Source: Candidatus Woesearchaeota archaeon (lineage in GTDB: Archaea; Nanobdellota; Nanobdellia; SCGC-AAA011-G17; JAFCDX01). Taken from it: DNA of 64,000 nucleotides. The notes under the pieces are model-generated. The model did no database searches, was not told the DNA's origin, and saw nothing but the letters and a program-made list of their open reading frames with translations. The stretch is from contig JAFCDX010000004.1 in the NCBI GenBank assembly GCA_017609465.1, forward strand, positions 1,822-65,821, in the 5' to 3' direction. Shown one piece after another: positions 44,326-56,953 of the stretch. A program made the position numbers and the translations under genes. Numbering within the stretch: position 1 is the stretch's first letter; the number at the start of each line of letters is the position of its first letter.

Positions 44326-44898
44326 CTAAATATATTTCAACACTTTATCTTTTATGTTTTTTGGATATTTCTTCAGATATTTTTTTAATTTTTCTTTGTC
44401 AATTCTCTTCTTGAACTCTTTCAGCAAATCCTTGTCCATGTTTTCCCTGAAATAAATCATGTCAATGAAAGTCTTTTCAACATCAGAAACAGGATAATAA
44501 ATATCTCCTTGCTTTATATAATCAAATCCAAAAACATATTTTGGATCAATTCTCCTTATAACAACATTGTTTCCAAATACTTTTCTTATTCCCTGTCTCA
44601 CTTTTCTTGCAGTAATTACAACAGTATTTGTTTCCTGCTCCCATAAGTCATGTATGCTTAATGCATCCTGCAACCCCATATAAGAAGGTTTAAAACAAAA
44701 AACCATTAAAGAAGTATCCTCGTATTTAGTATAATATCCCTTTGTTATTCTTTTTAATTTGTTTTTTAAAATTAAGTTTTTTATTAACTGTTTTGCATAT
44801 TTCTCATCACCAACAATTCTTTTTATAGAGCCAAAATCAACAACAGGACTTTTTTCAAATAATTTTATCACTTTGTCTATGTGTTTTTTTCTTCCCAT
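44326..44898 (-). CDS. AbiEi-like (COG5340-type) transcriptional regulator/antitoxin
   Basis: 'LKRITKGYYTKY', 'SYMGLQDALSIHDLWEQETNTVVITARK', 'VSDVEKTFIDMIYF'. Partner of the adjacent AbiEii-like gene. Confidence 0.65.
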   Translation of the reverse strand: MGRKKHIDKVIKLFEKSPVVDFGSIKRIVGDEKYAKQLIKNLILKNKLKRITKGYYTKYEDTSLMVFCFKPSYMGLQDALSIHDLWEQETNTVVITARKVRQGIRKVFGNNVVIRRIDPKYVFGFDYIKQGDIYYPVSDVEKTFIDMIYFRENMDKDLLKEFKKRIDKEKLKKYLKKYPKNIKDKVLKYI

Positions 44899-44900
44899 TT

Positions 44901-45545
44901 TTAAGCATATCTTTTTATATATTGTATCATCTTTTCTGGTTCAGGAACAATCCCTTCAAGTATAAGAACTTTTAATTCTTTTTTATCAACAGGTTCATAA
45001 AAGTTCTTTATTAGATAATTTATCTCAGTAATTATTTCCTTTTTGTTTTTTACATATCTCAAAAGAAAGAATATATCATACAAGTCTCTTATTTTTCTTC
45101 TTTTTGTATAAGCATGCACTTTTTCCTTTATTATTTCTTCAGGCGTTAAAGTGAACACTGTTATCATGTTTCCATTAACTTCCTTGTATTCCATCAATGA
45201 TCCTTTTGGAATTAGTTTTTTGAATAATGCTTCAAGTCTTACATTTATGTTGTTTATTTTTAGATTAGAATAAAGACTGTTTTCTCCTATTTTTTTCTTT
45301 AATATTTCAAATCCTTTGTTTTTTAAATTATCAAATAATTTATTTATTTTTGCTTCATTTTTTGGTATATATACATCAATATCTTCAGAAAATCTATTTC
45401 CGTTATAACATCTCCATATAGCTGTTCCGCCATGAATAACTGCTTTTTCAAATATTTTGTATAATTCAACAACAATTATATCCTGAGCTCTGGCTATTTC
45501 TTTATGTGCCTGTTTCTTTATCTTAAGTATCAAAGGAATTTCCAT
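44901..45545 (-). CDS. AbiEii/DUF1814-family nucleotidyltransferase (type IV TA toxin-like)
   Basis: 'VIHGGTAIWRCYNGNRFSEDIDVY' matches the GGTAL...R.S.D(I/L)D signature. Confidence 0.8.
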   Translation of the reverse strand: MEIPLILKIKKQAHKEIARAQDIIVVELYKIFEKAVIHGGTAIWRCYNGNRFSEDIDVYIPKNEAKINKLFDNLKNKGFEILKKKIGENSLYSNLKINNINVRLEALFKKLIPKGSLMEYKEVNGNMITVFTLTPEEIIKEKVHAYTKRRKIRDLYDIFFLLRYVKNKKEIITEINYLIKNFYEPVDKKELKVLILEGIVPEPEKMIQYIKRYA

Positions 45546-45584: not shown

Positions 45585-46196
45585 TTATAAATCTTTTGAT
45601 TCTATTCTTTCAAGAATTTCTTTCCAGTTTTCAACTCTTTCTATCATATCATATTCAGATTCATCAAAATTCTGGTTCCAGTAATTCTTTTTGTCATTTC
45701 CAAACAAGTATGACCTTATTCCGTTTTCTGAACAATCCACCACATGTGCAACTTTATCATCAATGATTAAATCAGCATCCATCTTTTTGCAATACATTGC
45801 TTTGGAATATCCATTGGATAGATACAATTCTGACAAGCTATCTCCAAAATAACGATTGGCCCAGAATATAGAATCCCCGAAAAGATAATTTGGTCTATCA
45901 CTTAATCCTATAATCTTGTGTTTCTCGCTTAATTTCTTTATTGATTCAACAGCATTTTCCAATGGCATTATGTTTTTGAAATAAGGAGACCTTGAGAATC
46001 TCTGAATCATTTTGTATTCCTCTTCTTCTGTTATATTAAGAATTTTTCCTATAGAATATGTTGTAAAATTCTCTCTTTTCAGGTTTTTAATTGGATTTTT
46101 GAAATTTCCAAGTAAATAATAACCTTCATTATAATATCTTATCAATGGGTCTATAAGACTTCCAAGAACCTCATCAATGTCTGTTATTATTATCAT
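45585..46196 (-). CDS. HAD-superfamily 5'(3')-deoxyribonucleotidase-like (NT5C) protein
   Basis: 'IIITDIDEVLG' (DxDxV) and 'DLIIDDKVAHV'. Confidence 0.6.
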   Translation of the reverse strand: MIIITDIDEVLGSLIDPLIRYYNEGYYLLGNFKNPIKNLKRENFTTYSIGKILNITEEEEYKMIQRFSRSPYFKNIMPLENAVESIKKLSEKHKIIGLSDRPNYLFGDSIFWANRYFGDSLSELYLSNGYSKAMYCKKMDADLIIDDKVAHVVDCSENGIRSYLFGNDKKNYWNQNFDESEYDMIERVENWKEILERIESKDL

Positions 46197-46227: not shown

Positions 46228-47610
46228 TTACTGTGTTAGTTTATCGAGATTCTTGTATTGTGTTGATCTTATAGTATCCTTTTCCCTGTAATACATAAGA
46301 TTTTCCTTTATATATTCCTCATAATCACCAGTAATTCCTTTTTTATATAAGAAATCCGATAATGAATGCTGTAAATCAAGAACATTGGTGTAATTTCCGT
46401 TCATGCACGAAATTACAATCTCATCCGCTTCCTTTTGTACTTCTTTTCCTATTAATTTTCTCATTGAAGAAGGCTTCTTTTTTTTCTTTATCATTTTTTT
46501 AACATATTCGATGTTTCCGGAAGGATGCCTGAAAGGTCTTCTTCCTGTTATCATTTCATACATTACAACTCCTGCTGAATGTATGTCATTCATAGGATGA
46601 ATAAGTCCTTCTAATGCCATTGGGGACATATAGCTTGGCTTTCCAGCTGATTTATATCCAATAGAATTGCTTGGAAGATTATCATAATCAAATTCCTGAA
46701 TAATGCTATAATCTATTAAAAAAGTATTTCCATTGTCTGTTATCAATATGTTAGAAGGGTCTATGTCCCCATGAGAATAACCTATCCTCTTTCCCATGAT
46801 CATTCTCGGCTTACTAATCTCTTCAACAGCTCTAAGAAACCTGCAACCTATTGTAAAAGCGACATTTACAGGGATATTGTATTCCTGTAGTTTTAATCTT
46901 TCGCTATCATTCATTATTGAAAGAAGATTATCTCCATCAATATATTCTATGCATAGATACGAGCCTGCTGCCCCTCCATCATCAATCTTGAATGCACCCC
47001 TGAAATCAGGTATTGATTCATTTTTTAGTTTTCTTAATATAAATTCCCTTTCAATATCACTATAATCAATATTTTCTGATTCACCAACCCTTTTTCTTGA
47101 CATATACTTAACACCAAGAAGTTCAAGTTCACTCTTGAAACCATACTTTCTCTTTATTGAATCTATGTTGTCTTGATTATATATAGGAAGTTTTTCCTTA
47201 AACATTTCCTCAAGAATATTTCTTCTTGTTTCAGTTCTTTCATAATCAACCCTGTTATCAGAGGTTTTTTCAGTATCATCAAGATATCTCTGTGAATTAT
47301 AATATAAATGCTCAATTGCAGTGGTTTTAAGAAGGAACCTTACAAATTCATCCACATCACCATAGTCTGAATTAACTCTAACAGCCTTGAAAAATTCACC
47401 AACAGAACCTGATCTTCCCTTTTTCTTGTTTAATATGTAAATCCTGTTTTCCTTCATTTTTGGATCTCCTGGACTTATTATCAAACCAGGCTCAAGCAAT
47501 CCATAAATTCGTGCATCCTCTTTTATTTTATACAATCCTTTTTCCCCTTCCAGGATTATATCTATTTTTTCTTTTTCTCTTTCAATTTCATCACTAAGCG
47601 AATAAACCAT
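46228..47610 (-). CDS. Hanks-type Ser/Thr protein kinase with long N-terminal extension
   Basis: Catalytic loop 'YSHGDIDPSNILI', 'FLIDYS' (DFG position), 'PSYMSPMALEG', 'DIHSAGVVMYEMITGRRPF'. Confidence 0.85.
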   Translation of the reverse strand: MVYSLSDEIEREKEKIDIILEGEKGLYKIKEDARIYGLLEPGLIISPGDPKMKENRIYILNKKKGRSGSVGEFFKAVRVNSDYGDVDEFVRFLLKTTAIEHLYYNSQRYLDDTEKTSDNRVDYERTETRRNILEEMFKEKLPIYNQDNIDSIKRKYGFKSELELLGVKYMSRKRVGESENIDYSDIEREFILRKLKNESIPDFRGAFKIDDGGAAGSYLCIEYIDGDNLLSIMNDSERLKLQEYNIPVNVAFTIGCRFLRAVEEISKPRMIMGKRIGYSHGDIDPSNILITDNGNTFLIDYSIIQEFDYDNLPSNSIGYKSAGKPSYMSPMALEGLIHPMNDIHSAGVVMYEMITGRRPFRHPSGNIEYVKKMIKKKKKPSSMRKLIGKEVQKEADEIVISCMNGNYTNVLDLQHSLSDFLYKKGITGDYEEYIKENLMYYREKDTIRSTQYKNLDKLTQ

Positions 47611-47612
47611 TT

Positions 47613-48749
47613 TTATTTCATAAAACCTTTTTCATCAATATAAGGTATTATATTCATAAGATTGTAATTTGGATCCTTTGGAAGAAAAGGAACAATATGT
47701 ACATACTTGTTATTATCATCCTTGTAAGCATTGTTATTCACATAAACCGCGGTTACCGCAGCTTCAAGAGGATTATCAAGCAACAGTATAGTGTATTTTG
47801 ATGTTGTATTCTCTGCAAAATCATTTATAACTTTAAGAGAATGTTCAAGACATGAATTCCCTATGCTTATTTTTCTCTTTGAGAATTTTCCAAATCCAGG
47901 AAATAATCTTTTTTCTCCGAAGTAATCATAAAATTGCTTGGGAGCCTTGTGTTTTTTCCATCTTCCCTTGAACCATGAAATAATTTTGTTTTCCTGTTTC
48001 AATCCAGAATGCTTAACGAAATTGTCTGCATAAAAGAAGCTGTCTCCATCACTCCTGTATTCATAAAAACCTCTTCTGAGTTTTTTTTCTTCTTCAACAT
48101 CAAATGCAGAAAGTATTATTGTGTCATTGATTATCTCTTTAACTTTTTCCTTATCAAATTTTGGAAACATTAACTTGACAGACTCATTATATTTTTCAAT
48201 AATGTTCTTCTTGTTTTTTAATTCACTGCTTTCTAATCTTTCCTGCATATACAACAAAGTATCAAGAGCTATATTCTCTGCCATTCCAATACCAAGATTG
48301 TATTTCTTAACTAATCTAAGTATATCATCGCTTGGAATACTCAAACCTAACCTTTTAATGAGTTTCCAGAAAGCCTCTTCTCTTGTATTTGAGGGATCTT
48401 CCAATAGATCTGCTAATGCATAAGAATAAGACATTCCAATAACCAACTCCCCTTTTCTAAACATTGTATTTGATCTTTCTATATTTACCCTGTGACCCTT
48501 GTCAACACCAACAGTATTTATGCTTCCTGAGAGATTATAGTGAATCCCCATTTCATTAGTATACTTGTTCAGTAACTTTTCAAGGTTTGACAGGAATTTC
48601 TTTGTTGTGGCTTGTCTCTTCGCATATCTTTCATAATATCCTGGGTCCACCAAGGAATTTTCTTCATGCATATCTTCAGGAACTTCTAAAATATCTCTTG
48701 CAGGGTTTTCAAAAAATCCCTTTCTTTCATGTTCATTATTGTTTTCCAT
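47613..48749 (-). CDS. hypothetical protein inside the kinase/FHA/phosphatase operon
   Basis: 378-aa ORF, 2-nt gaps on both sides. No motif recognised. Confidence 0.6.
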   Translation of the reverse strand: MENNNEHERKGFFENPARDILEVPEDMHEENSLVDPGYYERYAKRQATTKKFLSNLEKLLNKYTNEMGIHYNLSGSINTVGVDKGHRVNIERSNTMFRKGELVIGMSYSYALADLLEDPSNTREEAFWKLIKRLGLSIPSDDILRLVKKYNLGIGMAENIALDTLLYMQERLESSELKNKKNIIEKYNESVKLMFPKFDKEKVKEIINDTIILSAFDVEEEKKLRRGFYEYRSDGDSFFYADNFVKHSGLKQENKIISWFKGRWKKHKAPKQFYDYFGEKRLFPGFGKFSKRKISIGNSCLEHSLKVINDFAENTTSKYTILLLDNPLEAAVTAVYVNNNAYKDDNNKYVHIVPFLPKDPNYNLMNIIPYIDEKGFMK

Positions 48750-48751
48750 TT

Positions 48752-49849
48752 TTAAGATTTAATCTGAAGATTAAAGTAAAGATAATACCATGGCACACTT
48801 ACATATCCTTCGGGCCTTTTTTTCTTTTCCAGTGAAATATCAAATTTCTTGTCTTCTGCCCATCTTGCCTTTCCTGCTTCTATATCGACTATAGTTCCCA
48901 TTTCATATATTATCTCAATATCCACATCTACATTTTCAGGGTCAAAAAGATATACCAACCTATGCATTGGGTTATCTTCCTGGGATACAGGTTTTACTGT
49001 TTCTTCCCCTTGTATGTAAAAGTTATAGTTTGTGTAATTATCATTTATATTTAAAGAGAGTTTTCCTCCTCCTGCAGAGCAATCATCAAAATAAATTCCT
49101 TTTTTCATTTTTTTCTTGATATCATCACAAGACATTACCTTTAATGCATAATTTTCATTAAAAACAAATTGCTTTCTTGCCTTATCAAAAACTTTTCTTG
49201 CCTTTTCCACATATTCATCTGCTTTATCCTCATATTTTGAAAATTCCTTTCTCAACATTTCATTTATTTTATGGTCAATGTTTTCTATTGGTTTTCCTGA
49301 ATCATTTCCATTAAATAACATGTCAAATTCTTCATAGGTTTTTTTCATTTCAATAAGATGAGACTTTACAACAAGATCTTCTGTTGAAAATATTAATTCA
49401 AGCATACTGTCATTAACTTCTCTTGCTATACCATACTTTGAATCAGAATCATCAAGAACACTGTCCAAATCACCTGGTTTTTCATAATTTATTATTCTTG
49501 CATGTTGTGAGGAGACTTCATCATCATTTACAAACGCGTGTGATATGATCCTGTTTCTTCCCACTATTATCTGGTTCATTGATGATGACATTTCAAGGAG
49601 CTTCACTATATCATCTTCAAGATTTTTTTCACAATAAAATTCTCCTGTTCTTGGATTTATATAAAACAACCCTGCAGAGATTCCGAGTTTTGTTATCTCT
49701 TTTGAGGCTCCTGTTATTGTGCTCTTTAATTTTTTTCTTTTCTCCCTGTTAATCTGGGTTCCTCTTTTACCTCTATCTATCTTTTTCTCCATAAATTCCC
49801 TTTTTCTTTCGTTGTTTTCCTTTTTCTTGAAAAGATCCTTTAATGCCAT
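48752..49849 (-). CDS. FHA-domain protein
   Basis: 'IIVGRNRIISHAFVNDDEVSSQHARI...LDDSDSKYGIAREVN'. Start set at 'MALKDLF', whose ATG shares one nt with the PP2C stop (TAATG); the track ORF extends to 49879. Confidence 0.65.
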   Translation of the reverse strand: MALKDLFKKKENNERKREFMEKKIDRGKRGTQINREKRKKLKSTITGASKEITKLGISAGLFYINPRTGEFYCEKNLEDDIVKLLEMSSSMNQIIVGRNRIISHAFVNDDEVSSQHARIINYEKPGDLDSVLDDSDSKYGIAREVNDSMLELIFSTEDLVVKSHLIEMKKTYEEFDMLFNGNDSGKPIENIDHKINEMLRKEFSKYEDKADEYVEKARKVFDKARKQFVFNENYALKVMSCDDIKKKMKKGIYFDDCSAGGGKLSLNINDNYTNYNFYIQGEETVKPVSQEDNPMHRLVYLFDPENVDVDIEIIYEMGTIVDIEAGKARWAEDKKFDISLEKKKRPEGYVSVPWYYLYFNLQIKS

Positions 49850-51375
49850 TATGCAATCCTCCTTTTCCTGTATTTGCATCCATTTATTTTTCCTAATTTG
49901 TCAAGAGCCCTGTACATAGACTTTTCACTCATGTTAATCCCTGTATTTCTTTTTATTTTTTTAAGAGCCTCTTCATTAGTTCCTGAGAAATATGCATCTT
50001 TTATGATTTCAAGCTCTTCATAATTTATCATGCTTATATTTGTTTTTCTTTCATGATTAATTTCATTCCATGCATAACTCAAAACCTTTCTCAATTCAGA
50101 TTCATCATCAAGCATTGAGAACATATCTAAAGTATCCTCTTTGCCATTCACTGAATAAAAATCAGCTATATCTCTAACATGATTATAAAAATTTTCCATT
50201 CCTTTTTCTATAACATCATCGGCATTCTGTAAAGTCGCATTTGAATATGACTCAATCAGATCCAACTCAATATCAACAGAAGCCTGCTCTTGCGGAAGCT
50301 CAATTTCCTGTCCTGGATAAATAAGGTCTCCTTTTATTCCATCCTTTCCTTTTCTAACAACCTTATTATCAACATAAACCTTGTCTATTTTTAAATTAGG
50401 ATATTTTTCTGAATTTAATTCAGCTATTTCATTAACTTTTTCTGCTATATCCTTCTCATCGCTAAGATTATATCTTTCCTTTACTATGTTCCATAAGTTA
50501 TCCTCTTTTTTTACAACATGAACATATTTATTTGTATTTTCATTTGATTCATTATTTTTAGGAATATTGCTTGTCATTGAGGTTTTTATCTCTAAATTGT
50601 TTTTTTCAAAAATCTTTTCCATTATTTCTTGATTCTTATTGCAATTCTTTCCTGCAAACAATCCTGATAAACCTCCTATCAATAAAGATGCAGAAATATA
50701 TGCTGCTGTTTTCTTTATTGCGCTTGATTTTAACACATAACGAGGGTCTTCAATATCAATAACTATTACAGAGGCATCATCTTCCTTGCCTGAATTTCTT
50801 ATTATATACTCAACGGATTTTCTTGGATTTTTCCTAACTTCCTTTAGTATTTTATTATCTTCCAAATCAACACCATCAGATGCAAGAACAATCTTGTCTC
50901 CAGCTCTCAAGGGAACATTTCTGTAAAAAGGTTTTAATTCTCCCTTGTAATCAGGTCCAAGAGCCTGGTTCAATTTTCCTTCTTCATTAACATGCTCGTC
51001 TGTAAGTTTTTCTATCATATTGTTTTTTATCAAATAAGCCTTTGAATCACCAACATGAACAATGTCAAGTGAATAATCTCCATCTTCATCATTTATCCTT
51101 GCTGCAGTAAATGTTGTACCTCCAACAAAGACATTGTCTCTCAATTTTCTTATTAGGTCCTCTAGATTCATGTTTCTGTCCTTGTTTAATATGGATCCTG
51201 CAGCAGAAACACACTGCATGCTTGCTTCTCTTCCATTAAAAGTACCGTCTTTGCTGAGTTCACTCACACCATCTGCTATTGCATAAAATCTAAGTTTGTC
51301 AGAAACAAAAAAGGAATCTTCATTATACAACTTTCCTTCCTTAGCCCTGGTTTTCTTATAGGATGCTATCTTCAT
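49849..51375 (-). CDS. PP2C-family Ser/Thr phosphatase - TM - LysM fusion
   Basis: 'YAIADGVS', 'VHVGDSKAYL', 'VLASDGV', 'DDASVIVI'. TM 'AAYISASLLIGGLSGLFAG'. LysM 'YVHVVKKEDNLWNIVKERY...IYPGQEIELP'. Confidence 0.8.
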   Translation of the reverse strand: MKIASYKKTRAKEGKLYNEDSFFVSDKLRFYAIADGVSELSKDGTFNGREASMQCVSAAGSILNKDRNMNLEDLIRKLRDNVFVGGTTFTAARINDEDGDYSLDIVHVGDSKAYLIKNNMIEKLTDEHVNEEGKLNQALGPDYKGELKPFYRNVPLRAGDKIVLASDGVDLEDNKILKEVRKNPRKSVEYIIRNSGKEDDASVIVIDIEDPRYVLKSSAIKKTAAYISASLLIGGLSGLFAGKNCNKNQEIMEKIFEKNNLEIKTSMTSNIPKNNESNENTNKYVHVVKKEDNLWNIVKERYNLSDEKDIAEKVNEIAELNSEKYPNLKIDKVYVDNKVVRKGKDGIKGDLIYPGQEIELPQEQASVDIELDLIESYSNATLQNADDVIEKGMENFYNHVRDIADFYSVNGKEDTLDMFSMLDDESELRKVLSYAWNEINHERKTNISMINYEELEIIKDAYFSGTNEEALKKIKRNTGINMSEKSMYRALDKLGKINGCKYRKRRIA

Positions 51376-51506
51376 CTTAACATTATATGATTAGAGAATT
51401 AATATATAAACTTTTCTAAATTTTATCACTATAAAGTCAGAAAATTATTTTGTTAAATGATATAAATCTTATAATAATTTAAATAACAAAAATAAAGAAG
51501 AAAAAA

Positions 51507-55136: not shown

Positions 55137-55736
55137 ATGGCAAAAGTTCTATTAGCCACATTATATACTGCAGATCCTGTACTATTGGCTGCAAACAGGC
55201 TTGGCCCTGACAGATTAATATTATTTATCGATAAAGAGCCGAATAACGAACAGAAAAAATCCCTTAAATTAATAAAAGATTCCATTGGGAGGGTTGTTGA
55301 TGTAAAGGAAGTAAAGACAGATGTTTATGATATTGTTAATGTTGCCAAAAAATCCGTTGAAATAATTGACATGCAGCCAAAGGATGATTACATATTCATT
55401 AATATCACTTCTGGAAGAAAGACAAAGGCTCTTGGATTGTTGTTTGCTGCTTATGCACGTCATGAGAGAATAAAGAAAATAGCTTATAACCCTGAAGAGG
55501 ACAAGACTTCTGTTATTTATCTTCCAAAATTATCCTTTAAATTAACTGAAAGCCAAAAGAAAATTCTTGAAATTCTTGATAAAAAAGAAAATCTTAATTT
55601 TGCTGAACTTGCTGAAAAAGTTGAAATTTCAAGGGCAATGCTTTACAGAAATATTGATGAGTTAAGGGATTTGGACTTGATAAACACTGAAAACGGATTT
55701 AAGTTAACGGATGCAGGGAGAATTGCTGTTCTCTGA
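55137..55736 (+). CDS. CARF-like Rossmann domain + wHTH regulator (Csa3-like)
   Basis: N-terminal 'KVLLATLYTADPVL...RLILFID', 'FINITSGRKTKALGLLFAAY'. C-terminal 'SQKKILEIL...LNFAELAEKVEISRAMLYRNIDELRDLDLI'. This is the Csa3 architecture. Confidence 0.55.
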   Translation: MAKVLLATLYTADPVLLAANRLGPDRLILFIDKEPNNEQKKSLKLIKDSIGRVVDVKEVKTDVYDIVNVAKKSVEIIDMQPKDDYIFINITSGRKTKALGLLFAAYARHERIKKIAYNPEEDKTSVIYLPKLSFKLTESQKKILEILDKKENLNFAELAEKVEISRAMLYRNIDELRDLDLINTENGFKLTDAGRIAVL

Positions 55737-55752
55737 CAAAAAAGAGGAAAGA

Positions 55753-55926
55753 ATGGAAAATGTTGAAACAGATAATTTGGATGAAATTAAGAAGAAATTA
55801 AAAGATTATAAGGAAGATGATATAAAATTTAATGAACCTCATTTTTCAGACCAACTTATGCTCAGAGAAGGAAAGAAGGAAGATGTCATTAGGAACATAT
55901 TAAATCATGGGGCATATTTTAAATAA
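55753..55926 (+). CDS. short ORF, possibly a truncated gene fragment
   Basis: 'MENVETDNLDEIKKKLKDYKEDDIKFNEPHFSDQLMLREGKKEDVIRNILN' stops right at the MNT promoter. Confidence 0.3.
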   Translation: MENVETDNLDEIKKKLKDYKEDDIKFNEPHFSDQLMLREGKKEDVIRNILNHGAYFK

Positions 55927-55929
55927 TCA

Positions 55930-55943
55930 AAAGATTTATAAAG
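55930..55943 (+). promoter_or_regulatory. BRE/TATA promoter element (aaagatttataaag)
   Basis: Exact 14-mer, 22 nt before the ATG at 55965 (leaderless geometry). Confidence 0.45.
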
Positions 55944-55964
55944 TTAAGTTTACTCATATAAACT

Positions 55965-56513
55965 ATGATTAATATATATAAACTAAAGTTAACAATATTA
56001 CAGCAAGAGATTTTAAGATTCCTTTTTATAAATAATGGAGAAACATTCAATGCCAGAGATCTTGCAAGAAATTTAAAGGTTTCACAAACTGCAATCTCAA
56101 AAGCCCTACCTTCTCTTGAAGAATTAGATTATATAAAAGTACAAAAAAACAAAATATCAAAAAGATTATCCATCAATTTAAATACAGAAAATCCCTTGAT
56201 TAATGGTCTAAAAAGATCTGAAAACTTAAAAATTTTCTATGAATCTGGATTAGCAGATTTCTTATCAGATAATTTACCAGGGTGCACCATAATACTTTTT
56301 GGCTCATATTCATGGGGGGATGATACAATAAATTCAGATATTGACATTGCAGTCATTGGGACAAAAAAAAGGGATTTAAAGATTGAAAGATTTGAAAGAA
56401 TACTCAAAAAGAAGATTATCCTTCAATTTTATCCAGATTTTAAAGATATTCATAAACATTTAAAGGAGAATTTATTCAATGGCATATTGATAAGCGGGGG
56501 GATAGAATTATGA
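55965..56513 (+). CDS. wHTH + minimal nucleotidyltransferase (MNT, antitoxin-like)
   Basis: 'IILFGSYSWGDDTINSDIDIAVIG' (GS...SD.D). N-terminal 'FNARDLARNLKVSQTAISKALPSLEELDYI'. Confidence 0.85.
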   Translation: MINIYKLKLTILQQEILRFLFINNGETFNARDLARNLKVSQTAISKALPSLEELDYIKVQKNKISKRLSINLNTENPLINGLKRSENLKIFYESGLADFLSDNLPGCTIILFGSYSWGDDTINSDIDIAVIGTKKRDLKIERFERILKKKIILQFYPDFKDIHKHLKENLFNGILISGGIEL

Positions 56514-56953
56514 AATTGCCAAAAAAATTTGAAGAGTATTTAAACCAAGGCATTATAAGAAAAATACATCCAAACAAATCAAGGGCAAATTTCTTAATAA
56601 AGGGATCTAAAAATTCATTGCAAGGTATAAAAGAAATAGTTAAAAAGATAGGTATAAATGATAAAAATTCAAATACAATAATAAAGGATTCTTATGATAT
56701 AATTATGGAAATTATAAGAGCGCAACTCCTGATGAAAGGATATACATCCTCTGGTCTTTATTCACATGAAGCAGAAATATCGTACATGTGGAATCTTGGT
56801 TTTACAGATAATGAGATTTCTTTCGTGAATGAATTGAGGTTTTTCAGAAATGGGATAATATATTACGGAAAGATTCTAGATAAGGAATATGCAACGAAAG
56901 TTTATGAATTCTTAAACAAAGTACTTCCAAAATTAACAAAAATTAATCTTTAA
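56510..56953 (+). CDS. HEPN-like partner of the MNT gene
   Basis: 4-nt overlap with the MNT gene. Helical, with 'ELRFFRNGIIYYG' resembling the HEPN R-x-x-x-x-N/H..Y region. No clear R-x4-6-H seen. Confidence 0.6.
   Translation: MKLPKKFEEYLNQGIIRKIHPNKSRANFLIKGSKNSLQGIKEIVKKIGINDKNSNTIIKDSYDIIMEIIRAQLLMKGYTSSGLYSHEAEISYMWNLGFTDNEISFVNELRFFRNGIIYYGKILDKEYATKVYEFLNKVLPKLTKINL

Follow-up and report, generated by a model that had tools for sequence, protein, structure and literature searches.

The window analysed here is a stretch of 64,000 nucleotides (nt) from contig JAFCDX010000004.1 of a Candidatus Woesearchaeota archaeon. At positions 46228-51375 it carries four tightly packed minus-strand genes encoding, in order, a membrane-anchored PP2C phosphatase with a LysM domain, an FHA-like protein of 365 amino acids (aa), an orphan protein of 378 aa and a Hanks-type Ser/Thr kinase. 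Our leading interpretation, which sequence comparison makes somewhat probable, is that this operon is one unit encoding a self-contained Ser/Thr phosphorylation switch, in which the 378-aa protein would be the dedicated partner or the first substrate of the kinase. We draw the partnership from strict translational coupling, combined with the co-occurrence of a family-specific partner and a family-specific insertion in the kinase N-lobe. At all seven loci that we identified, the gene of the 378 family stands directly 5' of a kinase gene with a split N-lobe and ends 1-13 nt ahead of it.

The seven loci represent two DPANN lineages and one bacterial class of two species. They comprise the window; L003, a 5.8-kb Logan contig; L006, on the complete 3.4-Mb chromosome of 'Deltaproteobacteria bacterium bin23', with its close relatives L009 and L018; L007, an ENA contig; and L017, in genome G815, which shares its class with the window archaeon and belongs to a different order. 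L003 repeats the order of the window, with a C-terminal fragment of the PP2C protein followed by the FHA-like protein (37% identity), the 378-family protein (51%) and the kinase (53%), and then by GNAT and L31e genes; overall, the orthologues of the two loci are 37-56% identical in amino-acid sequence. L006 encodes a 378-family protein, the kinase, a 276-aa protein and a Metallophos phosphatase, an arrangement of four genes shared by L009 and L018, and in L007 and L017 a protein of 362 or 371 aa precedes the 378-family protein and the kinase. Identities to the window proteins fall in parallel along this series, from 51 to 24 and 21% for the 378 family and from 53 to 27 and 23% for the kinase, in keeping with co-inheritance, while the flanking genes vary among lineages and the neighbours of the operon in the window are not conserved at the other loci. 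The original prediction had proposed a co-conserved phosphosignalling unit and had made synteny its test in advance: the order recurs in L003, the 378/kinase pair recurs in seven of seven loci, and neither a failure of co-conservation nor a match to a housekeeping family was found.

A phosphatase accompanies the pair at the five of these loci whose contigs are long enough, as the PP2C protein in the window and its C-terminal fragment in L003, and as a Metallophos (PPP-type) enzyme in the three bacterial loci (L006:13290-14225, L009:3506-4441 and L018:4484-5419). The latter is a non-orthologous replacement within an otherwise conserved cassette, and since the type of phosphatase was swapped while the pair was kept, selection appears to act on reversible phosphorylation and not on one particular enzyme. 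A third protein is likewise present at all seven loci, where it takes one of two forms that are not detectably related. One is the FHA-like protein of the window and L003, and the other is an orphan family (L006:12470-13300, L007:599-1687, L017:2630-3745, L009:2664-3506 and L018:3642-4484) with the motif ACGRT...CQGFFYVK...YLYWxDxxSTNGS. By eye, 'STNGS' resembles an FHA loop; we rejected this assignment because the family has no Pfam match and reaches an hhalign probability of 0.7% against bona fide FHA domains, and we likewise set aside kinship with the FHA-like protein of the window, for which hhalign probabilities of 0.1-1% show no relationship.

The 378 family is confined to very few genomes. 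It was found in none of 41 close relatives of the source archaeon, in none of 240 genomes of its order and, among 401 genomes of its phylum, only in G815 besides the source genome, the other 399 lacking it; among 401 genomes of the bacterial phylum it occurs only in both genomes of one class, with none in the other 399. JGI metagenome contigs gave no match to the 378 profile and one to the profile of the kinase N-lobe, and viral contigs gave no relatives.

The kinase (46228..47610, minus strand; 460 aa) matches Pkinase (PF00069) over aa 165-406 with 58.1 bits, above the cut-off of 31.7, and with 59 bits in a genome search. An alignment of the kinases from the related loci shows Lys168 (beta-3), Glu189 (alpha-C), the catalytic Asp282, Asn287 and the Mg-binding Asp300 to be invariant, and the protein-kinase-specific C-lobe (DIHSAGVVMYEMITGRRPF) is present in the window kinase. 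Its N-lobe is split. The glycine-rich loop GRSGSVG (aa 65-71) does not adjoin the VAIK strand; it lies about 90 residues ahead of Lys168, within a displaced segment of glycine-rich loop and beta-2 (aa 65-79, GRSGSVGEFFKAVRV; 47374..47418) whose GxGxxxExFKA signature (aa 65-76) is invariant among all aligned kinases. Between beta-2 and the VAIK strand lies an insertion of ~78-85 aa (aa 81-158; 47137..47370) that is conserved in seven of seven kinases and contains an invariant Glu100. All the natural kinases match Pkinase only from model positions 22-29, and once aa 81-158 are removed in silico, the match reaches back to model position 9 and gains in score, from 58.1 to 65.3 bits, from which we conclude that the insertion separates the glycine-rich loop and beta-2 from beta-3. 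What had been described as an unknown N-terminal extension of ~230 aa was thus mostly misread: it consists of the glycine-rich loop at aa 65-79, the insertion and a true extension of ~55 residues.

The 378-aa protein (47613..48749, minus strand), initially reported as having no recognisable motif, proved an orphan in Pfam, PDB-profile and cluster searches alike. A word-indexed search of 5.8 billion clusters gave two hits and, among them, a single relative (P0002 on L003, identity 48-51%), and when 1.84 billion representatives were scanned exhaustively with HMMER and a two-sequence profile, only four clusters came up; at E <= 10, Pfam gave no family with matches in more than one of the seven members. 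Profile searches against PDB sequences, made with A1, A2, A8 (third-gene type) and A9 and covering the 378 family, found nothing significant. Modelled with AlphaFold2 (AF2) from two sequences, the protein gave an unusable predicted local distance difference test (pLDDT) score of 34, and from seven sequences it gave a mean pLDDT of 58.3 and a predicted template-modelling (TM) score of 0.58; the blocks modelled with confidence are aa 95-150, 200-245 and 300-340. In this model, the N-terminal half comprises a beta-hairpin and helices and holds the best-conserved motifs (GELVIG and P..TR..A.W), and the C-terminal half has the order b1-b2-b3-a-b4-a-b5. Its conserved acidic residues are an invariant Asp217 on b1, an acidic position 313 (Glu or Asp) and an invariant Glu329. 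Foldseek found no match to the model at E <= 1e-3 in PDB or BFVD; low-probability matches recur on RNase H-fold proteins, at best with E-values of 0.01-0.1 and TM-scores of ~0.3 or lower, so that an RNase H-like fold for the C-terminal half is a lead only. A vWA identity, as in ArnB, was rejected because no match to it and no vWA domain were detected.

The packing of the four genes is consistent with one transcription unit. They fill 46228-51375, and open reading frames (ORFs) of 365-508 aa in DNA of ~31% GC are real genes rather than chance. Reading the junctions directly bore out the compact layout first described: the stop codon of gene 1 and the start codon of gene 2 share TAATG at 49849, in the sequence GCATAATGGCA, and the other two junctions both read TAA-AA-ATG, leaving 2-nt gaps (48749/48752 and 47610/47613). 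Gene 2 could start at 49879, giving 375 aa, or at 49849, giving 365 aa, and we favour the latter on the grounds of a GGAGG located 8-9 nt 5' of its ATG, the public gene call P0003 (365 aa) and the alignment with the orthologue. Upstream of the operon, an AT-rich intergenic region of 131 nt (51376..51506, minus strand) contains AGAAAAG-TTTATATA some 28-35 nt 5' of the PP2C start codon, which by comparison with the archaeal TATA consensus is likely the operon promoter, with a B recognition element (BRE) and TATA box of archaeal type. An oligo-T run follows the kinase stop codon, and beyond it a second TATA-like box precedes a gene for an NT5C-like protein; since none of the other loci conserves the NT5C-like gene, the transcription unit most likely consists of these four genes.

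The product of the first gene (49849..51375, minus strand; 508 aa) has the PP2C-transmembrane (TM)-LysM arrangement attributed to it from the start, with the PPM motifs in place, one TM segment and a LysM domain that exceeds its cut-off when scanned alone. Compared with the PP2C/PPM families PF13672 and PF00481, its catalytic domain (aa 1-210; 50746..51375) scores 21.8 bits for PP2C_2 in hmmscan against a cut-off of 24, and 25.7 bits, summed over the frame, in a six-frame search of the genome; it matches the Stp1/IreP NCBIfam model with E 1.3e-10, yet far under the equivalog cut-off. Pattern matching located the metal-binding Asp motifs and GDS[RK], all of them present (NED18-20, ADG34-36, GDSK109-112, SDG166-168 and DDAS199-202), together with TDEH125-128, and we take the Asp motifs to be PPM motifs I, II, VIII and XI on established knowledge of the family. 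In a Kyte-Doolittle scan of all four proteins, the only segment above 1.2 was aa 222-243 of this one (AAYISASLLIGGLSGLFAG; 50647..50712), a single predicted TM helix, and Lys/Arg residues N-terminal to it suggest an N-in topology. The LysM domain (PF01476; aa 284-361; 50293..50526) carries a loop of ~26 aa ahead of its last strand; its score is 15.3 bits in the whole protein, rises to 22.8 bits (cut-off 20.9) for the unaltered 94-aa region by itself and reaches 24.3 bits with full model coverage (1-43) once the loop is deleted. A C-terminal domain of ~150 aa without a Pfam family (aa 362-508; 49852..50292), predicted to be external, completes the protein, and its last 62 aa are 56% identical to the first-gene fragment on L003 (E 3e-21). 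The tail ...TNEEALKKIKRNTGINMSEKSMYRALDKLG (window 49852-50040; L003:1-237) has the appearance of a helix-turn-helix (HTH), an odd place for a DNA-binding motif on the predicted external side of the membrane, and we rejected this reading because the HTH_33 matches reach only 12 bits (E 0.13-0.17, the same in both orthologues).

The second gene product (48752..49849, minus strand) is a probable divergent FHA protein, as judged from profile scores, with a C-terminal part of ~220 aa without a family. Its FHA-like segment (aa 88-142; 49424..49588), marked by VGRNR, VSSQHAR and SKYG, scores 21.2 bits against a hidden Markov model (HMM) for which we took 19 bona fide FHA domains found in the same phylum; the match spans the GR, SxxH and (N)G loops and is confined to model positions 9-58. 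Comparison with FHA by hhalign gave a probability of 42% (E 2.6e-4), the FhaB NCBIfam model matched with E 0.017, and the FHA structure 3gqs was among the PDB profile matches with E 0.44. In the phosphothreonine-binding loops, GR97-98 and S113-x-x-H116 are present and YG stands in place of NG. In a sample of 301 genomes of the phylum, 39 have FHA domains above the cut-off, yet the domain is absent from the other genomes carrying the 378 family. The motif YFD[DE]CS[AS]GGG[KR]LS, at aa 250-265 of the FHA-like protein, is common to the L003 orthologue and matches no family. Elsewhere in the same archaeal class, FHA domains occur in giant ORFs of 12045 (G643:C21, L047), 7979 (G778:C43, L034) and 6282 residues (G808:C25, L026), the first of which, a single frame, contains at least three FHA matches.

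The source genome measures 0.80 Mb in 36 contigs, is 89% complete, has a GC content of ~30% and gives an archaeal small-subunit rRNA match of 1378 bits. Within this assembly, gene 1 is the only PP2C match and gene 2 the only FHA-like match, and Pkinase matches the operon kinase and one other protein. The latter (203 aa; G000:C26:70389-71000, L020:1387-1998) carries HGDLTTSNMIL and FIDFGL, and from established knowledge of such motifs we take it to be Bud32 of KEOPS.

From these elements, we propose that the module was acquired as an accessory unit by this 0.8-Mb DPANN-type archaeon. Its core is a pair of proteins, a Hanks-type kinase that is soluble and the orphan 378-aa protein. In our proposal, the orphan would bind the kinase as a regulatory subunit, as its first substrate or as both, and would probably dock on the family-specific insertion. 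The membrane-anchored PP2C would reverse the phosphorylation and so reset the switch, while the external LysM and C-terminal domains could tie its activity or location to a glycan of the N-acetylglucosamine (GlcNAc) type, either the archaeon's own or that of a host. The FHA-like protein would then be a likely phospho-dependent adaptor or output, perhaps one that reads phosphothreonine.

Several observations weigh against a switch of this kind. Where HRDxKxxN and DFG would be canonical, the window and L003 kinases carry HGDIDPSN and D[YF]S (DYS in the window); Asp thus replaces the catalytic-loop Lys, and a different activity or substrate class is conceivable. No Thr is conserved between the activation segments of these two archaeal orthologues, and around the best motif of the 378 family no Thr is common to all members. 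No phosphatase was seen on the short contigs L007 and L017, the first gene of L003 is represented by its C-terminal 79 aa, which do not cover the PP2C domain, and the LysM domain occurs in an archaeon without murein. Pfam FHA (PF00498) scores 17.1 bits in hmmscan and 18.8 bits in the genome search, below its cut-off of 20.7, and in the only orthologue, that of L003, GS and SKQQ occupy the key loops in place of the canonical Arg and His, with 2.7 bits against the phylum HMM and no Pfam match. At the other five loci, no FHA domain is detectable in the product of the third gene. The kinase and the 378 family are the only universally conserved recognisable families, the phosphatase type and the third protein changing by lineage. 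What was originally called an FHA protein is therefore better described as a probable one, held up by the phylum-specific score and held back by the sub-threshold Pfam score and the altered orthologue, and the proposal of a complete write/erase/read set is plausible, with the reader as its weak part.

The ~15 kb around the operon are accessory in character, with MopE-type surface proteins, an NT5C-like HAD protein, AbiEii/AbiEi, small winged HTH (wHTH) proteins, a CARF-wHTH regulator, an HTH-nucleotidyltransferase and an XPD-like helicase. The flanking surface-protein, toxin-antitoxin and defence genes of the first description were recovered as two proteins with MopE motifs upstream and the NT5C-like HAD, AbiEii and AbiEi genes downstream. 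The NT5C-like HAD 5'-nucleotidase gene (window 45585-46196; 34.8 bits) is separated from the kinase, on its downstream side, by 31 nt and has a TATA-like box of its own. In the AbiE pair (window 44326-45545), the AbiEii toxin (214 aa) precedes the AbiEi-like protein (190 aa) with 2 nt between them, and PADLOC models match both. Further away (window 55137-56953), a CARF-like and wHTH regulator with HFX_2341_N and Card1 CARF matches is followed by an MNT-like HTH-nucleotidyltransferase and a 147-aa ORF without a family; no cas genes were seen near this regulator.

Such surroundings invite other readings of the operon. The two MopE-type genes directly upstream and the external LysM on the phosphatase could point to a regulator of cell-surface or host contact that controls the adjacent surface-protein genes or attachment, with the 378-aa protein, the FHA-like protein or both as transcriptional output. 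By analogy, the archaellum of Sulfolobus is controlled by the FHA-based repression module ArnA/ArnB, in which an FHA protein and its partner act with Hanks kinases and a PPP phosphatase (PMC5007285, PMC6509490), and the bacterial versions of the module carry a PPP-type Metallophos phosphatase. However, no vWA or zinc-finger domain was detected in the four proteins, nor any significant DNA-binding domain beyond the 12-bit HTH_33-like hint in the predicted external tail of the phosphatase, and the surface-protein neighbours are not conserved elsewhere, which leaves this regulator unlikely. The AbiE, MNT and CARF-wHTH genes could instead place the operon in a defence or abortive-infection setting, in which the 378-aa protein would be an effector, perhaps a nuclease, whose C-terminal domain is RNase H-like and whose activity is gated by the kinase, the phosphatase and the FHA-like protein. 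The strand order of the AF2 model and the placement of Asp217, acidic position 313 and Glu329 would suit such an effector, as would the weak Foldseek matches on integrase cores, ISCth4, Metnase, IscB and RNase HI, although no fold match reaches E 1e-3, the TM-scores stay at ~0.3 or below, and the acidic residues follow neither the canonical DDE nor the DEDD layout, none being conserved after b5. In PADLOC-DB, the kinase matches the defence-kinase models PD-T4-6 and Mad6, but these matches reflect generic kinase-domain similarity, and the PP2C, FHA-like and 378-aa proteins have none. Moreover, none of the other six loci sits in a defence island (their neighbours are GNAT and L31e, PadR and MMPL, or SNF and queuosine genes) and the lack of relatives on viral contigs speaks in the same direction; we therefore regard a defence role as distinctly unlikely.

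The altered catalytic motifs raise a different concern, namely that the window-type kinase is a pseudokinase or a small-molecule kinase and that the operon encodes no protein-phosphorylation switch in this archaeon. HGDIDPSN lacks the Lys of Ser/Thr kinases and resembles the HGDxxxxN of RIO, Bud32, APH and choline kinases, DFG has become DYS, and P0005 shows weak ABC1, APH and choline-kinase matches over the catalytic segment. Set against this are the invariance of the beta-3 Lys, alpha-C Glu, catalytic Asp, Asn and Mg-binding Asp, the protein-kinase-specific C-lobe (DIHSAGVVMYEMITGRRPF), the canonical D[IL]KPxN and DFG of the relatives (NRDIKPEN in L006 and HNDLKPSN in L007, each with DFG, and the same pattern in the other members) and the co-encoded protein phosphatase, which together make a kinase of that sort quite improbable. 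As for a chance adjacency of unrelated genes, favoured only by the general gene density of small genomes, we reject it as improbable in the extreme, because L003 preserves the same order and the 378/kinase pair is adjacent at seven of seven loci in two domains of life with different flanks.

Read as a partner-coupled phosphorylation switch, the operon recalls the bacterial modules of Hanks kinase, PP2C and FHA protein, such as mycobacterial PknA/PknB-PstP-FhaA/FhaB and PpkA-PppA-Fha1 of the type VI secretion system (T6SS), in which a kinase, a PPM phosphatase and an FHA-type protein are co-encoded, as are the kinase, the phosphatase and the probable FHA protein here. PstP, like the PP2C protein of the window, is a membrane-anchored phosphatase with an external part. 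The operon differs from these modules in that the external sensor, a LysM domain, is on the phosphatase and not on the kinase, which is soluble; in its obligatory fourth orphan partner, the split N-lobe of its kinase and its archaeal host; and in the lack of adjacent cell-wall synthesis or T6SS genes. In Sulfolobus, the zinc-finger FHA protein ArnA and the vWA protein ArnB form a phosphorylation-dependent complex under the Hanks kinases ArnC and ArnD and a PP2A phosphatase (PMC5007285, PMC6509490). As in that system, a probable FHA protein of an archaeon appears together with a putative partner, a kinase and a phosphatase, and the phosphatase of the bacterial relatives of the module is of PPP type. 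ArnA and ArnB have their kinases and phosphatase encoded elsewhere, whereas here all components lie in one operon; no sequence relationship links the 378 family to the Arn proteins, and no vWA or zinc-finger match was found in the seven 378-family members any more than in the four proteins of the window. Plant LysM receptor kinases of the CERK1/NFR1 type consist of external LysM domains, a TM segment and a cytoplasmic kinase. The PP2C protein resembles them in coupling an external LysM through one TM helix to cytoplasmic Ser/Thr phospho-chemistry, and differs from them in having a PP2C instead of a kinase, one LysM with a long loop instead of three, and a prokaryotic host.

The pair of kinase and 378-aa protein also invites comparison with cyclin-dependent kinases and their cyclins, a functional analogy drawn only from gene coupling, in that a separate partner appears obligatory and a partner-specific element would sit in the N-lobe by the alpha-C helix; no similarity to cyclins in sequence or fold was found for the 378 family. 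On a bolder view, which we advance as speculative and of fairly low probability, the 378 family and the kinase would form an obligate two-subunit enzyme undescribed in prokaryotes, either activated by its partner in a 'cyclin-like' manner through docking on the N-lobe insertion or gating an RNase H-fold effector, and the cassette would have been traded between DPANN archaea and one small class of bacteria, its phosphatase being interchangeable.

Little is understood of Ser/Thr signalling in archaea; a 2016 review counts a single biochemical study of archaeal PPM-type phosphatases (PMC5007285). With seven loci in the collections searched, the module is extremely rare, which limits its reach unless the partner mechanism is wider at the level of the fold. 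It provides a kinase family defined by an insertion in its N-lobe and an undescribed pair of kinase and putative partner, and the strict coupling of the orphan family to the kinase yields a specific and testable prediction of a kinase-partner complex. Because the operon is apparently the only Hanks-type signalling set in an episymbiont-type genome of ~0.8 Mb, its targets should be few and tractable, and the membrane PP2C with its external LysM domain may provide a link from surface or host glycans to phosphorylation in the cytoplasm.

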